A DNA stretch of 63,089 nt from a virus (IMGVR_UViG_3300044729_002069:1-63089); one strand, 5' to 3'. Shown: positions 28,432 to 56,941, counted from the first letter of the stretch. Made by a program: numbers and translations. Notes: generated from the sequence alone by a model not told the origin.

Positions 28432-28734
28432 ATGCGCTACCTAGTTAGCAGCACAATTAGCGCTGCACGGATGCCCCATCACCAGCGCAAGCTAGTCGTT
28501 GCGGAAAGAATGAAAGAAGCCCGCCTTAATAGCGGGCTCAGTCAGCGTGACGTTGCCAAAGAGCTGCACATAGGGGCTTCCACTTATTGCCGCATGGAAA
28601 GAGCCGAAACAGAACCATCCGCAGTGCAATTGGCAACACTTAGCGGACTTTACACCCTTTCCGTGCTTTGGTTTTTAGGGATACCTAGTTATGTCGTTGA
28701 TGCTCAATCGTCGTCATCATCGTCCATACCCTGA
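28432..28734 (+). CDS. XRE-family helix-turn-helix regulator
   Basis: RMKEARLNSGLSQRDVAKELHIGASTYCRMERAETEP. Confidence 0.85.
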   Translation: MRYLVSSTISAARMPHHQRKLVVAERMKEARLNSGLSQRDVAKELHIGASTYCRMERAETEPSAVQLATLSGLYTLSVLWFLGIPSYVVDAQSSSSSSIP

Positions 28735-42303: not shown

Positions 42304-42674
42304 GCGTCCGTTGGCGGAAGATAACTGGAGAATGCATCACTGAGGGCTTCATGGCCAATGCCAGGTACTTTCTCCAGCCATTGATAAACTGCTCCAAAGA
42401 GCTTGTCGGCAGAATGTTCAAGATCATGCACGCCTTCGGAGTAGCCTTCAAGAACAGTGCATACGTCATCGTAGATGGTGGGAGGCTGTTCCCAAGGTTC
42501 CTTTTCTTTGGCTTCTTCTTTTGCAAGAAGATAACCAAAGGCTGCAGCAGCACTTTTCGTTGCGCATAGATCAAAAGGCTCAAAGCGCTCTACAAGCAGC
42601 TTGAACTCTGGCAATGGCGCGTGCTGCATGGCGAGGCCGATTAGACGGTTTTTGGTGGAGAAATGGTCAGTCAT
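42300..42674 (-). CDS. Hypothetical protein
   Basis: Start MTDHF at 42674 overlapping the upstream stop. Confidence 0.6.
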   Translation of the reverse strand: MTDHFSTKNRLIGLAMQHAPLPEFKLLVERFEPFDLCATKSAAAAFGYLLAKEEAKEKEPWEQPPTIYDDVCTVLEGYSEGVHDLEHSADKLFGAVYQWLEKVPGIGHEALSDAFSSYLPPTDA

Positions 42675-43005
42675 TGGGCAAAGCCTCCAATGCGCGGCGG
42701 ACGGTGTCAACATGCGCCTTTAGTTCATCGTGGACAGTGTATGCTTTGAGTTGGTCAATAGCGTAGCCGTCGATTTCATCGAGAGCGGACAACGCCTGTT
42801 GTTTTACGCTTGGCGGCTTGGGGCGGCGGGTGGCGCGGAGGTGGTTGCTTGTTTGATAGAAACCGCAGCGATTGAGCCACTCACAGCACGCCTCCAGCTC
42901 CTGATCTGCGCCAGCTTGGAATGCCGTTTCTATCGCGCACATTGGAGGCAGTCCGTTCAATTCCTTTATCAGCTCTGCTTGCATTTTCGCAGGATGATCA
43001 GTCAT
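42667..43005 (-). CDS. Cyanophage-type hypothetical protein
   Basis: Start MTDHP at 43005; GADQELEACCEWL...LR..RRPKPPS.K.QAL...RRALE.LP. Confidence 0.7.
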   Translation of the reverse strand: MTDHPAKMQAELIKELNGLPPMCAIETAFQAGADQELEACCEWLNRCGFYQTSNHLRATRRPKPPSVKQQALSALDEIDGYAIDQLKAYTVHDELKAHVDTVRRALEALPND

Positions 43006-43462
43006 TATTCTTCTCGTAGTAGCCAGCGGCATCCACCCAGCCCAGCAGGAGATCACTGTCGGACGGTGAAAGATCAATGGTTCCATTGCTGCGCTTTTTC
43101 CAGTAAGCAACTCCTTGATCGGTTTCACTCCAGGCAAATGCTCCCATAAGTTTGTAGCAGTCACCGTTAAGAGCTTCCACTGTGGCGGCCTTGTCAAATG
43201 CAATTTTGTTCAAGAACTTTTCAGTCACTGCAGGCTTGAAAGCCTCCTTCTTTAACGCTCTATTTGCAAGCAGCCTTTCCACTGCCTGGACAATCAGAGG
43301 CCACTCTTCAATGTCAATGGGAAGTTCGGTGTCAATTTCTTCAACTCGTAGCAAGATACATTTATCTTCTCCCCCCTCGTTTTCAATGGTGACGCGGGTG
43401 GAATAGGAGTGTTCGTCGCTGGGTACGGTTTCGTAGCCAAGGTTGCGAAGCGTGTAAGGCAT
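42998..43462 (-). CDS. Hypothetical protein
   Basis: 154 aa; AF.W..T.QG..YW motif; upstream TTGACG-N16-TATGCT promoter. Confidence 0.65.
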   Translation of the reverse strand: MPYTLRNLGYETVPSDEHSYSTRVTIENEGGEDKCILLRVEEIDTELPIDIEEWPLIVQAVERLLANRALKKEAFKPAVTEKFLNKIAFDKAATVEALNGDCYKLMGAFAWSETDQGVAYWKKRSNGTIDLSPSDSDLLLGWVDAAGYYEKNND

Positions 43463-46091: not shown

Positions 46092-46167
46092 TGTAGCGTG
46101 TGATACAGTTTCACACTTTGTAACGTAGATACATTGTAGATACGGGCGAAAATGAGAATGATTCTCC
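46092..46167. promoter_or_regulatory. Cluster of host TF-like sites: NtcA box, HLR1-like repeat, Fur-like box
   Basis: TGTA-GCGTGTGA-TACA (46092-46107); minus-strand GTTACAAA-GT-GTGAAACT-GT-ATCACACG; TGAGAAT-G-ATTCTCC (46153-46167). Confidence 0.6.
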
Positions 46168-48468: not shown

Positions 48469-48660
48469 TTAAAAGGGGTTACTCCAGTTAAATGCTTGCG
48501 TATCGGTTACTAGGCCCGATTTATTTAAGGCATCCACGTAGTTGTTAAAAGCCTCCCTTTTGGCAGTGACATCCCCTCTCCACTGAGGGGCATTCTCTAA
48601 GTGTTCCCTCCATGCTTGGCGGAAGTTTGCTAACACTTGGGCTTTAGTTAGTTTTTTCAT
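48469..48660 (-). CDS. Hypothetical early protein
   Basis: TKAQ....FR..W......D..AKREAFNNY.D.L.K.G..T..Q...W.NPF. Confidence 0.7.
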   Translation of the reverse strand: MKKLTKAQVLANFRQAWREHLENAPQWRGDVTAKREAFNNYVDALNKSGLVTDTQAFNWSNPF

Positions 48661-48693
48661 GATGGGAGGCCAAACAGGATAAATAACAGCGAT

Positions 48694-49062
48694 CTAGCAA
48701 CAGGCAAGCGCCACACTTGAATAACACTGGTCAATAGGGAACCCGCGACCGGCCAAGTCCGATTCGCGGTAAAAATACAACGCGCAACCCCTAGGGTCGG
48801 CTTGGTGATAGATTAGCCCGCCGCACTTAGCGGCTAAATCTGCCGCTTCTTTAAGTAGCTTTGCCTCCTGATTGGAGATAATGCCACCTTTAAGAGTGCA
48901 GTTGCCGTAACGGTCAAGATAGTAACGGCGAGGGATTGTGCATTCTGCATCGTCCCATTGGATAGCGCCGTTGCATTCAGCCTCTGCCCACTTATGCAGA
49001 CGGCGTTGGATGGCGCACAAGCGGCTGAAAACGGAAGCCGGTAAATCTTTTTTTGTTGTCAT
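48694..49062 (-). CDS. Hypothetical early protein
   Basis: LH.WAE.ECNG...YHQ.DPRGCALY. Confidence 0.75.
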   Translation of the reverse strand: MTTKKDLPASVFSRLCAIQRRLHKWAEAECNGAIQWDDAECTIPRRYYLDRYGNCTLKGGIISNQEAKLLKEAADLAAKCGGLIYHQADPRGCALYFYRESDLAGRGFPIDQCYSSVALACC

Positions 49063-49107
49063 GGAAAAGGAAGAGAAGGGAAAGCCTCACGGTCGCCCGT
49101 GAGGGAA

Positions 49108-49159
49108 GCCGTCGCCCGGGATCGAACCGGAACAAAGCGCCACCAAGCGCAACGACAGG
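49108..49159 (-). ncRNA. Mini tRNA-like element lacking an anticodon arm, in a 5' leader
   Basis: CTGTCG/CGACGG stem; GCGC-TTGGTG-GCGC D-like hairpin; CCGG-TTCGATC-CCGG T-arm. Confidence 0.5.
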
Positions 49160-49313
49160 AAAAAGGGAAAGGCTTTCGCCTTTCCCCCTGGAAGTCGGTT
49201 TATCAAGTTTTCTAGGTTCGCTTGCAAGCGTACCACCGATAAAGGCCATCGCCAGCCCATCGGCTCCACTGATCAGCAGCTCCGATGGGAACGGCCAAAA
49301 TCGCCGCATTCCC

Positions 49314-49825
49314 ATAGGCTGAGCTTGTGCATTAGCTGAGCTTCTGTGATCTGCGCGTTCTGGGATTTTATGATCAGCCTGGCTTATGGGAGCCTGGCAA
49401 GCGTTGGCCACCTAGCATGGCCTGGCGACGTTTCGACGTTCCGTTACATTCCGTCACAATGCGCAGCCCATAACGGCAGCATCATATGGGCATGGCTGAC
49501 GCAAGCGTTCGTTACGTTCCGTCACATAACAGCAGCATGTTATGGGCATTGCCAGGTCAAGCCTGCTGTAACATTCCGTAACATTCCGCCCGATAGTACG
49601 CCTGTACTGCAGTACACCTGTACCATCAGCCAGGCTTATGGCAAGCATAAGCTTCCCTTATGGTACGCCTGTACTATAGGCTCGGCTTATGTTACAGATA
49701 GGCTCAGCTTATGGTACGTCTGTACGCTAGTACGCTTGTTCCATGGTACGCCTGTACCATTAGCGCAGCTCATGGGAGGCATAAGCCAGGCTTATGGTAC
49801 GCCTGTACTAGAGTACGTCTGTACT
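49314..49825. promoter_or_regulatory. Tiled array of cyanobacterial LexA boxes, LysR-type boxes and RpaB HLR1 repeats
   Basis: RGTAC-N3-DGTWCB x8; ATNAG/ATAGG-N5-CTTAT-like x9; GTTACATT-CC-GTCACAAT-like x3. Confidence 0.75.
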
Positions 49826-49879
49826 ATTATGCGGCTTAAAGCATATGCCGATAAAGAAATATGCCGGTAGGAGCATAAA

Positions 49880-50105
49880 AAGCTGGTTCTAGCCTGTCCT
49901 CAAGAAGCTGGTTCTGGCCGGTTCTGAAAAAGCTGGTTCTGGCCTGTCCTCGACAAGCTGCTTCTGGCCGGTTCTAAAAACGATCTTGCCCTGCCCTGTC
50001 CTCAGCCAGTTCTCGTTTCAGCCTGTCATCAAGAAGCCGCCTCTGGCCGGTTCTGAAACGATCCTGTCCTGTCCTGTCCTTAACAAGCTGGTGCTGGCTA
50101 GTCCT
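49880..50105. repeat. 25-bp tandem repeat (4 clear copies plus degenerate ones)
   Basis: AAGCTGGTTCT(A/G)GCC(TGTCCT/GGTTCT) starting at 49880, 49905, 49930, 49955. Confidence 0.85.
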
Positions 50106-50680
50106 CAGCTTCCCCATTGTTCTGCCATTGCTTGAGCAATGCCAAGGTAAGTTGCGCTTCTTATCTTCCACCTATCCTCACTTGGCCCCAGTTTATTTTG
50201 CCCGCTTGGTGTTTGATTGTTCCATCTTCCCGATGGTGACAATTCAAGAATGTCAGTAGGTTGAAGAAGAGGGAGATTCTTTAACCACAGACAAGTTGCT
50301 TTTGCTTCAGCGTGACCAAACTGCCAAGGTTGCACAATTTGATCTGGCTTTCTGATGCGAGAGGAAATAATGCTCACTGGATTTTCTAGGGCAATGCGTT
50401 CAATGGGAGCATTAAGCAGTAGCCGCACAAATTCAAGAGCTTCTGCCTGCTCTTTTTGCTTGTCCTTAAACCATCGTGCTCCACTAACGGCCAAGTGCGT
50501 ACATGGAGGATGAGCAATCATTAAATCCCACCCATCGCTCAAGATGTCGCACACATCTCCTTGATAGTGCGGCCCAGGCTTGTCAGTAGGCAACAAATCA
50601 CAGCTCATTGCTTCGTGACCAGCCGCAATAAAAGCATCACGAACAGTGCCAGAATACTCGCAAGCAACCAATACTTTCAT
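50105..50680 (-). CDS. Short phage C5 cytosine DNA methyltransferase-like protein
   Basis: Start MKVLVACEYSG at 50680; SCDL, DL.IAHPPC, ENPV, QPWQFG, RS.T..GIA.AMA.QW. Confidence 0.8.
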   Translation of the reverse strand: MKVLVACEYSGTVRDAFIAAGHEAMSCDLLPTDKPGPHYQGDVCDILSDGWDLMIAHPPCTHLAVSGARWFKDKQKEQAEALEFVRLLLNAPIERIALENPVSIISSRIRKPDQIVQPWQFGHAEAKATCLWLKNLPLLQPTDILELSPSGRWNNQTPSGQNKLGPSEDRWKIRSATYLGIAQAMAEQWGS

Positions 50681-50819
50681 GGGAAGGGAAGATAGTTGTT
50701 CAACAAGAAAAGGTATTTGCAAAGAGCAATAGGCATCAAACAAGCCATTTCTTTGCTCAGTGGAACTGGCGTAATCTTCTGTGCCATCAGGCAAATGAAA
50801 AGTGCCAAAGCATTGTCAC

Positions 50820-51026
50820 TTAGCTTTTTTGGATTGCGTAGGCATCTTTGACAAAGGTTTTGATAGTGGTGAGGCTGGAGTCAATAATAGTGCCGCCACC
50901 GCCAAGAGCATCAGTTGTCCACCCATAGCGCAAGTGACAGCACCATTCTTTGCTGAATGGTTCACGTTCTAACGACTTCACTCCAGGGAAGGAAAGAATG
51001 GCCTGAGCGAGCTTAGGGAGAGGCAT
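50820..51026 (-). CDS. Hypothetical protein
   Basis: Start MPLPK at 51026. Confidence 0.55.
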   Translation of the reverse strand: MPLPKLAQAILSFPGVKSLEREPFSKEWCCHLRYGWTTDALGGGGTIIDSSLTTIKTFVKDAYAIQKS

Positions 51027-55827: not shown

Positions 55828-56171
55828 GGTGTGGGGTCGAGTTCGGCGGCGTCCAACGCAATCAGCCGGTCGAGCTTGTCTTGCTGGGCGGCTTCTAGCG
55901 CTTCAATTCGCTCGCGAAGTGCGTGCATTCCAGAACGGACCATCGCCCAGCAGTTTGCGTCTTCTTTGTCGTATGCCTCCAGCGTCTCCACCCGCCGAAC
56001 GATGGCATCAGTGCAGAACCGACCGCTCTCGGCTTGCTCTAGCTGGTCGGCCTCTAGGGCTTCGATGCGGTCGCGGAGTTCGAGGATGCAGGAAGTCATC
56101 TCCAGCCCTGCTTCTGTCCGTTCGTGCATGTAAGCCCACTGTTCAGGCGTGGCGCGGTGTGGTGTGGTCAT
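55824..56171 (-). CDS. Coiled-coil hypothetical protein
   Basis: Start at 56171; HRATPEQW...CILELR.R.EALEA with internal repeats. Confidence 0.7.
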   Translation of the reverse strand: MTTPHRATPEQWAYMHERTEAGLEMTSCILELRDRIEALEADQLEQAESGRFCTDAIVRRVETLEAYDKEDANCWAMVRSGMHALRERIEALEAAQQDKLDRLIALDAAELDPTP

Positions 56172-56941
56172 GCCGCCTCCTGTGCAACAGACTGCAGCCA
56201 CGCAATCGCATCATCATTGCTGTCGTAAAAGTGCGCAGCAGCATTAGCGCCTAACAACAGCAATCCAGCCATGTATGGGCCATGAAGTTTCTCCAAGACT
56301 TCACCTAATGTTCCAGCCTGGTGAATAGCCCACCCTGCCAAGCAATGAGTAGTACCGCACTCGCTATGCCAGCTTTTCATCTGCAGGATTTGGGGGTGAT
56401 CCAATACATGGCTGGCAACCGCACGCAGACGTTGCTGGGCATCTGCAGCAATTGGCAACCCGTTGGCGCCGTCCAGAATGGCGTAGCTCAGAATGGCGCC
56501 GTGCAGAATGGCGCCGCGCAGAATGGCGTAGCTCAGATTGGCGCCGCGCAGATTGGCGCCGTTCAGAATGGCGTGGCTCAGATTGGCGCCGCTCAGATTG
56601 GCGCCGCGCAGAATGGCGTAGCTCAGATTGGCGCCGCGCAGATTGGCGCCGTTCAGAATGGCGCCGCGCAGATTGGCGCCGCGCAGATTGGCGCCGCGCA
56701 GATTGGCGTAGCTCAGATTGGCGCGGCTCAGAATGGCGCCGTTCAGAATGGCGCCGCGCAGATTAGCGCCGCGCAGATTGGCGCCGTTCAGATTGGCGCC
56801 GTGCAGATTGGCGCCGTGCAGATTGGCGCCGTGCAGATTGGCGTAGCTCAGATTGGCGCGGACGCCAGCAGGATCGCCGGCAAGCCATAGCGTGTGCAGG
56901 CGAAGCGTCTCGCTGATGTTGACTGTTTGGCTGTCAGTCAT
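56168..56941 (-). CDS. Pentapeptide repeat protein
   Basis: Long A(N/I)L(H/R/S/N)(G/Y) array encoded by 15-bp DNA repeats; C-terminal WH..CGTTHC.AGW. Confidence 0.92.

Follow-up and report, generated by a model that had tools for sequence, protein, structure and literature searches.

A tiled array of LexA-type boxes and paired dyads in a conserved non-coding region of S-CBS4-like cyanophages, a possible switch region for host regulators

The DNA considered here is a single virus record of IMG/VR (IMGVR_UViG_3300044729_002069), 63,089 bp long, classed as linear and ~88% complete; "the window" below means this whole stretch. Positions 49595–49825 hold a 231-bp array of two kinds of short site, LexA-type boxes (A) and 15-bp dyads (B), which stand in the order AA-BB-A-BB-AAA-BB-AA with no spacers between A and B. 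The array lies inside a hub of 1,042 bp that contains no credible gene and is the largest non-coding gap in the window. The elements of the array are as follows.

49595–49624, plus strand: A1 and A2, LexA-type boxes 16 bp apart (pattern scan)
49625–49661, unstranded: B1 and B2, 15-bp dyads with a 7-bp spacer, 22 bp start to start
49662–49675, plus strand: A3, LexA-type box
49676–49712, unstranded: B3 and B4, a dyad pair whose 7-nt spacer, GTTACAG, is also present in the relative L431
49713–49758, plus strand: A4, A5 and A6, LexA-type boxes at 16-bp steps; the second arm of A5 is GTTC
49759–49795, unstranded: B5 and B6, dyad pair
49796–49825, plus strand: A7 and A8, LexA-type boxes; A8 runs into a -10-like TAYYAT

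A preliminary description, made from the sequence alone, had placed A boxes matching RGTACNNNDGTWCB at 49595, 49611, 49662, 49713, 49729, 49745, 49796 and 49812, neighbouring copies being 16 bp apart, and six 15-bp dyads in three pairs, 22 bp start to start and abutting the boxes. Rescanning returned every box coordinate exactly, the same spacing, the same dyad sequences and positions, and zero spacer at every A/B junction. The A pattern has nine matches in the window, representing eight sites of which one is matched on both strands, against 0.31 expected; none of 100 shuffles reached nine, no match lies in the window outside 49595–49825, and the pattern written backwards, used as a control, gave no match. 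The B pattern, ATWRGCNNNGCTYAT with up to one mismatch, has 22 strand-wise matches (2.28 expected, reached by none of 100 shuffles), of which 15, at nine sites, fall within 49314–49795 and so include three B-like sites left of the array. The tiling of A boxes and B dyads is far beyond chance. Part of it came about by duplication, an 89-nt AA-BB-A unit being repeated at 49591–49679 and 49725–49813 with 78% identity.

All eight A boxes match the cyanobacterial LexA box consensus, RGTACNNNDGTWCB or AGTACWNWTGTACT, (PMC3091678), which supports the earlier assignment of these boxes to the LexA type. In five of them (A1, A3, A7, A8 and A2) cores of 12–13 nt are identical to published LexA boxes, which are themselves predictions rather than footprints and come from marine or other strains (PMC3091678, Table 1); the boxes concerned belong to recA of Synechococcus WH8102 and Prochlorococcus NATL2A and to Npun_F1842 of Nostoc punctiforme (PMC3091678). 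A T precedes the second arm in eight of eight A boxes, as it does in the host sites, and positions 6–8 read RYY, as in predicted picocyanobacterial recA boxes; the A boxes of relatives also carry this T when read in one orientation. The putative LexA regulon of marine picocyanobacteria includes recA, lexA and umuDC and is up-regulated by oxidative stress in WH7803, and a Prochlorococcus ultraviolet study describes E. coli-like repair pathways with putative LexA sites upstream of their genes (PMC3744912). A separate explanation of the boxes, that GTAC is a restriction target, was set aside: outside the hub GTAC (0.69) is no more depleted than other four-letter palindromes.

The hub contains four repeat families beyond A and B, which the preliminary description had overlooked, and sits between a methyltransferase gene and a replication-side operon. 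Its features and neighbours are the following.

49063–50104, unstranded: gene-free hub with at least six repeat families (open reading frame maps, repeat search)
49314–49387, unstranded: three B-like sites, at 49314, 49331 and 49373, each one mismatch away from the B pattern
49443–49585, plus strand: three double octamers (C) of high-light regulatory 1 (HLR1) type, that is RpaB-type, at 49443, 49511 and 49568
49466–49496 and 49525–49552: two E palindromes, interleaved with the C octamers
49826–49876, plus strand: F segment of GCATATGCC-type words, with the lowest GC content of the hub (0.42–0.43)
49877–50106, plus strand: D repeats, about nine direct iteron-like 25-mers with the core CTGGCCGGTTCT
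49346–49870, plus strand: 174-aa open reading frame spanning the array, judged spurious
49160–49189, minus strand: T1, terminator-like hairpin with a 9-bp stem, GAAA loop and T run, downstream of the hub
49075–49104, minus strand: T2, second terminator-like hairpin, just ahead of the start codon of the 122-aa gene
50105–50794, minus strand: DNA methyltransferase gene (phrog_757), transcribed towards the hub
48694–49062, minus strand: 122-aa gene without a family, the first downstream of the hub (open reading frame map, family search)
Following the 122-aa gene: a 63-aa gene (phrog_336), then a 443-aa clamp-like gene (phrog_947)

Read along the gene (minus) strand, these elements therefore run methyltransferase, D, F, A/B, C/E, the two terminator-like hairpins, and the 122-aa, 63-aa and clamp-like genes. 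The C octamers are in 10-bp register, and C and E together form a 56-bp tandem unit. GC content falls to 0.42 in the F segment from about 0.52, and the D repeats, with a period of 25, end at the methyltransferase stop codon.

The C sites were compared with the HLR1 consensus, two octamers (G/T)TTACA(T/A)(T/A) spaced 2 nt apart (PMC6525291); the three of them, all in 49443–49585, fit with one, two and two mismatches, and the whole window has four HLR1 matches against 0.68 expected. HLR1 occurrences have been reported from cyanophage genomes (PMC6525291). The B dyads proved harder to assign. The preliminary description had called them LysR-type sites, a label that fell: all six do fit T-N11-A, which is a generic pattern too loose to discriminate, and there is neither a LysR gene nor LysR-type promoter geometry. 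The helix-turn-helix domain of LysR (HTH_1, PF00126) has no match in the six frames of the window; a host-encoded LysR-type regulator is possible. The dyads are instead a motif family of the phage lineage, ATMRGC-N3-GCTTRT, which travels together with the A boxes in the sequences compared.

Nearly all genes of the window lie on the minus strand (open reading frame maps). Those identified include portal, terminase, a 2,056-aa open reading frame of tape-measure size, ribonucleotide reductase, a phosphoesterase, an endonuclease VII/HNH protein, the clamp-like protein and the methyltransferase. Among isolates, Synechococcus phage S-CBS4 (host Synechococcus sp. CB0101) comes closest, with a portal that is 67% identical over its full length; among 55 window proteins tested, 17 + 3 match two S-CBS4 loci. 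Because of these matches, and because the stretch is present in 24 lake or freshwater metagenome runs, the phage is most likely a freshwater cyanosiphovirus of S-CBS4 type, its host being inferred; the cyanophage nature implied by the preliminary description is supported. Isolated phages gave no DNA match to the hub, and 40–60 kb of the window gave a single match of 35 bases. No relatives of the clamp-like protein were found in viral contigs, and no DNA polymerase was seen among the window proteins scanned.

Two further observations concern neighbouring parts of the window. A 257-aa open reading frame on the minus strand (56168–56941) has internal repeats and matches several PHROG families of unknown function, each in two or three stretches; its DNA contains four near-identical ATTGGCG-N2-GCTCAG words about 120–135 bp apart. 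A palindrome that adjoins A boxes in many relatives, and that we take to resemble Fur-family boxes, occurs once in the window (GAGAATGATTCTC, 46148–46166), at a distance of 3.4 kb from the hub; the endonuclease VII/HNH gene and a 63-aa gene flank the gap in which it lies.

Equivalent arrays were sought in related phages, as had been proposed, and the motif families do recur in many related viral contigs. Scanning viral contigs for two A boxes 16 bp apart gave 113 stretches, 59 of them classed as 8-bp microsatellites and 54 not, by a filter that wrongly dropped L143, L171 and L177; the two-box pattern also matches such microsatellites, and nearly all of at least 120 matches in genome contigs were 8-bp tandem repeats. 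Five of the genomes concerned were examined for phycobilisome genes, and none of the five has them. At least one protein is held in common with the window by 22 of the 113 stretches. The families recur in L088, L152, L154, L115, L141, L130, L136 and L102, and also in L171, L143, L177, L091, L124, L349 and L431. Relatives carry paired A boxes together with 10-bp-phased GTNAC repeats; ATAAGC-N3-GCTTAT dyads that are paired with a 7-bp spacer and abut an A box; F words of TATGCGCATA type directly following the A pair; and D repeats with the core CTNGCCGG. L088, L152, L154, L115 and L141 have the families in the same order as the window, C/E, B, A, F, D, and hub-bearing relatives mostly keep it. 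Of the 54 non-microsatellite loci, 15 have B, 16 have F, 19 have D and 11 have the Fur-like palindrome no more than 700 bp from the A pair; in the remaining sequence of the same 54 loci, 316,528 bp in all, there are one B, one F, 15 D and two Fur-like matches. The -10-like TAYYAT at the A/F junction is kept in relatives and may be part of a promoter, and hairpins comparable to T1 are found there as well.

A viral-contig scan for B–A junctions gave, among the matches listed, mostly chance occurrences, with hubs in two of 114 new loci (L349 and L431). L431 reads A-BB-A-x-A-BB-A, has the same 7-nt spacer as the second B pair of the window, and carries its A boxes inverted relative to B. In L008 and L009, GTAC-N4-GTAC boxes and other repeats lie downstream of a methyltransferase homologue.

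The hub also keeps its place between genes. In the six relatives mapped in this orientation (L088, L152, L154, L115, L141 and L136), the upstream genes are transcribed into the D side and the downstream genes away from the C side. The upstream gene at the hub is a methyltransferase or an HNH endonuclease: a gene for an HNH homing endonuclease stands at the D edge in L136 (9629–10429), L115 (2612–3313) and L008 (about 1056–1760), where the window has the methyltransferase. The downstream operon includes a GP88-family gene (PF17338) in five of six relatives tested, in place of which the window has the 122-aa and clamp-like genes.

Site number is the feature in which the window departs most visibly from these relatives, with eight A boxes per hub where most of them have two to four, and with B expanded too. 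An array of this kind could act primarily as a sponge, titrating LexA and the B factor as phage copies rise and so derepressing the host SOS response or timing copy number, with no control of a local promoter. The density of sites is indeed far above that of known promoters, no promoter is recognisable within the array, and arrays occur on unrelated phage backbones; here the array has been expanded by duplication, yet it is intact across samples and years. On the other hand, two to four boxes are few for titration, and local action is suggested by the constant order of the families and their constant place between gene blocks. A pure sponge is therefore possible but poorly supported, given the low box number in most relatives, and we consider it distinctly improbable.

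Three records extend the distribution of arrays beyond this lineage. G001 (9 + 1 A boxes), G003 (six) and G002 (six) have one array locus each, G001 and G003 being rated 100% complete; none of five records searched, these three included, has a portal of S-CBS4 type. What they share with the window is limited to tail or structural proteins or one small protein that does not look DNA-binding. Between array-bearing G001 or G003 and the window, no common non-structural protein was found at BLAST level, a comparison that can miss a divergent shared DNA-binding protein. Because the arrays stand on these backbones without a shared DNA-binding candidate, the common ligand of the A boxes would more easily be a host protein than a phage protein.

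This pattern bears on whether the sites might instead be operators of a phage-encoded repressor, serving immunity or an early switch, with the likeness to LexA boxes arising by convergence or mimicry. Dyad sites in phased pairs are a classic phage operator design; the B, E and F families match no verified host motif, and 12% of the genome is missing from the window. The proteins that can be read argue the other way. Neither a LexA-like domain (LexA_DNA_bind, Peptidase_S24) nor HTH_1 is encoded in six frames of the window, as the preliminary description had said of LexA and LysR genes, and no integrase or resolvase was found there. One XRE-type helix-turn-helix (HTH_3) gene is present:

28432–28734, plus strand: sole XRE-type helix-turn-helix gene of the window

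Its orientation is antisense to structural genes, as is that of the "transcriptional repressor" gene in the corresponding place of S-CBS4. The product of the window gene does not co-occur with arrays, having a homologue in array-free S-CBS4 and none in G001–G003. Together with the lack of a common non-structural protein, this leaves us giving little credence to a phage repressor.

A small-protein family was also tried as a candidate binder and rejected, having no DNA-binding signature. In the window it is represented by an open reading frame at 42667–43203 on the minus strand, with its true start probably near 43005 and the motif GADQELEACCEWL...RRPKPPSLKEQAL...IRRALE; the family is present in 12 hub-bearing loci (including L335 of G002), sometimes as two tandem copies.

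The preliminary description had argued that the sites reflect selection on binding rather than slippage, and natural variants bear this out by sparing conserved arms and moving towards consensus. In a variant strain (runs X2 and X6) 16 changes fall within 49164–49771, and none of the 16 damages a conserved arm. Eight lie inside annotated boxes, all of them towards the family consensus or at degenerate positions: two make the second HLR1-like site a match without mismatch, one removes a difference between the second E palindrome and the first, two restore consensus arms in B3 and B5, and three are at the variable centre or R position of A4, A5 and A6. Five cluster in 49552–49566, four in the 15-bp spacer 49553–49567 and one on the last base of the second E palindrome (49552), and three are left of the hub boxes.

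Other variants are closer to the window or differ in larger blocks. Among contigs from other lake samples, X4 covers 48805–50080 (1,276 bases) with no difference in the hub, and X3, a 10.6-kb contig, covers 48700–50080 with two. Both continue with unrelated sequence right of 50080, in place of the methyltransferase gene, and the right hub edge is therefore a recombination junction between phage genotypes, the methyltransferase side being mosaic. In another variant, 49851–50024 is replaced by 109 other letters.

The 174-aa open reading frame across the array is not conserved as a protein. Natural changes in its frame are synonymous in three cases and non-synonymous in ten, and a tblastn search of 321 viral loci gave one weak match (E = 6e-4, 26% identity); further, weaker matches of the unfiltered search, with E values of 0.001 and higher, are spread over both strands and several frames, which is the pattern expected of DNA motifs. 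All three reading frames are represented among the A and B boxes themselves. The preliminary description had allowed that relatives might conserve this frame rather than the motifs, which is not what they do.

The palindromes might also act in other forms, as hairpins of a non-coding transcript, a packaging signal or a signal that stops DNA injection. They could form hairpins, the gene-strand RNA of 49063–49320 (258 nt) folds better than shuffles (z = -3.3), and in some relatives arrays lie at contig ends. However, arm variants of B are non-compensatory, C standing opposite T and T opposite C, which argues for degenerate half-sites of a protein and against hairpins, and the stems of A boxes are only 5 bp. 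Nothing credible came from Rfam, where 48500–51000 gave two matches with E = 0.28 and 0.44, far under gathering scores. The inverted orientation of A relative to B in L431 is as expected for a symmetric protein site. With regard to DNA ends, the array is internal to the window contig and the terminase genes are 13 kb away, and G003 ends inside a repeat region that continues at its other end, as from an assembly cut. A role at the RNA level or at DNA ends is, on this evidence, highly improbable.

Two observations belong beside these. The G003 record, 56 kb and rated complete, has its ends (L324, positions 1–500, and L123, the end) inside a repeat region of more than 1 kb, in which six A boxes are accompanied by at least six further families of tandem repeats; assemblies are likely to break at hub-like regions. 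Between the two terminator-like hairpins of the window, a tRNA-like piece on the minus strand (49108–49158) has a canonical T arm (5-bp stem, loop TTCGATC) followed by the 3' strand of an acceptor (7 nt), whose complementary 5' strand of 6 nt lies 20 nt upstream. It was called by neither ARAGORN, which found no tRNA in the window, nor Rfam, and may represent a degenerate tRNA, an RNA end that resembles a tRNA, or a remnant of a phage attachment site (attP); the attP reading was rejected with the absence of any integrase or resolvase in the window.

The D and F segments raise the possibility that the hub is a replication origin, in which the D 25-mers would be iterons for a phage initiator, F an unwinding region, and the A and B sites accessory elements that organise or license the origin. 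Origins of this type are recognised by at least three tandem repeats of 17–25 bp, and here there are about nine direct 25-mers with a core common to relatives, right next to the lowest GC content of the hub. Many repeat families within 1 kb are typical of plasmid and phage origins. The hub lies among genes of replication and nucleotide metabolism, and as no DNA polymerase was seen among the scanned proteins, the host replisome would need recruiting. Against this, no initiator gene was recognised beside the hub, where the neighbours are the methyltransferase, 122-aa, phrog_336 and clamp-like genes, and the downstream genes differ between the window and the GP88-bearing relatives. The DnaA box TTWTNCACA is absent from the hub and has two matches elsewhere in the window (4.45 expected); the AT-rich stretch is short and mild, GC skew does not turn at the hub, and G001, G002 and G003 have A arrays with only 0–1 D cores nearby. 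An iteron origin is the strongest rival, which we judge unlikely without treating it as exclusive of a regulatory switch.

We favour, at somewhat less than even confidence, the reading that the 231-bp block forms the enlarged centre of a switch region which is conserved in freshwater S-CBS4-like cyanosiphoviruses, codes for no protein and is bound by host regulators, and that phage replication genes are probably coupled through it to host stress regulators. The hub is read as a switch region because its dominant motif is a repressor operator, a second motif matches the site of a light/redox regulator, and its position is constant. The internal position of the array, between co-directional gene blocks in relatives, agrees with a switch or origin region no less than with the sponge, nuclease coat or injection stop that had been put forward before.

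What the sequences show is the anatomy of the hub, its conservation, selection at motif level and agreement with published operator consensus sequences; the binding events and regulatory outcome that follow are what we infer. The hub would mark the boundary of two co-directional gene blocks, the methyltransferase block upstream and the replication-side operon downstream. Host LexA would use the A boxes as operators, and its dimers, 16 bp or one and a half turns apart and hence on opposite faces of the helix, could pack side by side. The paired B dyads, two turns apart, would bind a second dimeric or tetrameric factor from host or phage, and the HLR1-like sites the host response regulator RpaB. 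Bound proteins may then form a continuous repressing nucleoprotein stretch that keeps transcription from crossing or leaving the hub and possibly keeps the adjacent iteron-like segment from firing. Release would follow cleavage of LexA after DNA damage, or the point at which replicating phage copies exceed the repressor, so that expression of middle or replication genes would be tied to the damage and light/redox state of the host.

A bolder version seems rather improbable to us. In it the region would be a portable operator cassette for host LexA, RpaB, a Fur-like factor (in relatives) and others, acting as a protein-free sponge and timer: as copy number rises with phage replication, it would draw these repressors off the host chromosome and so reprogramme the regulons for DNA damage, light and metals, while also setting the timing of the phage middle genes.

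Several points weigh against control by host regulators. Eight boxes and nine dyads exceed the site numbers of known SOS promoters, and a promoter consensus scan gave two sites against 2.1 expected, none of them within the array; counts in the promoter and terminator scans were at chance level. In S-CBS4 a scan found three A-like words, at scattered positions, and nothing that matches B, C, D or the Fur-like palindrome; it lacks the whole module, which is therefore dispensable for this phage type. The iteron-like D repeats and the AT-richest F segment fit an origin. A phage-encoded binder could lie in the missing 12% of the genome, or be too divergent for BLAST-level comparison. Prediction of host-factor boxes in phage genomes has, moreover, been called unreliable (PMC10976474).

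Known systems resemble parts of the hub. Host LexA operators of cyanobacteria (recA, lexA, ssb and umuDC) share its 14-bp pattern, the asymmetric T before the second arm and, in three published predicted sites, the 12–13-nt cores; they are single boxes 16–172 bp upstream of a gene, unlike the eight boxes tiled with another dyad in phage DNA (PMC3091678). Host PhoB binds cyanophage promoters in gel shifts, with Pho boxes in S-PM2d and P-SSM2 (PMC10976474). Such PhoB and HLR1 sites likewise place operators of host stress regulators in phage DNA, but as scattered single sites upstream of individual genes in myoviruses, whereas the hub gathers several operator types within one kilobase in a siphovirus lineage.

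Among phages of other bacteria, GIL01 of Bacillus thuringiensis reportedly uses host LexA as its phage repressor, and CTX phage and tum of coliphage 186 are further cases of host LexA in phage control. GIL01-type systems share with the proposed switch a phage without a classical repressor, host LexA boxes at the switch region and DNA damage as the trigger; they are said to have one to a few boxes at defined promoters, in contrast to eight interleaved with a second dyad. We know of no LexA-switch phage with eight boxes interleaved in this way or set within a conserved multi-family hub. Iteron origins and datA of E. coli are dense protein-binding repeat arrays in non-coding DNA, and datA titrates by site number. 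The hub resembles them in its dense repeated sites, its D 25-mers being iteron-like, and differs from iteron origins in that its most repeated element matches a repressor operator rather than an initiator site, with neither initiator gene nor DnaA boxes.

Use of host LexA by phages and of host PhoB by cyanophages is thus already known, as single operators at single promoters. The literature searched, with supplements and subscription journals outside its scope, gave no description of LexA-box arrays in cyanophages. What appears to be new is that several candidate operator families directly adjoin one another in a single conserved non-coding cassette, across a lineage of uncultured lake cyanophages and on other backbones. 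The element is short, well defined and open to experimental test. If host regulators do bind it, these phages would sense DNA damage, and probably light or redox state, through host repressors and without a regulator of their own. This would be relevant to the gating of cyanophage infection in lake water and to the question whether viruses truly take over their hosts by letting replicating viral DNA titrate repressors.

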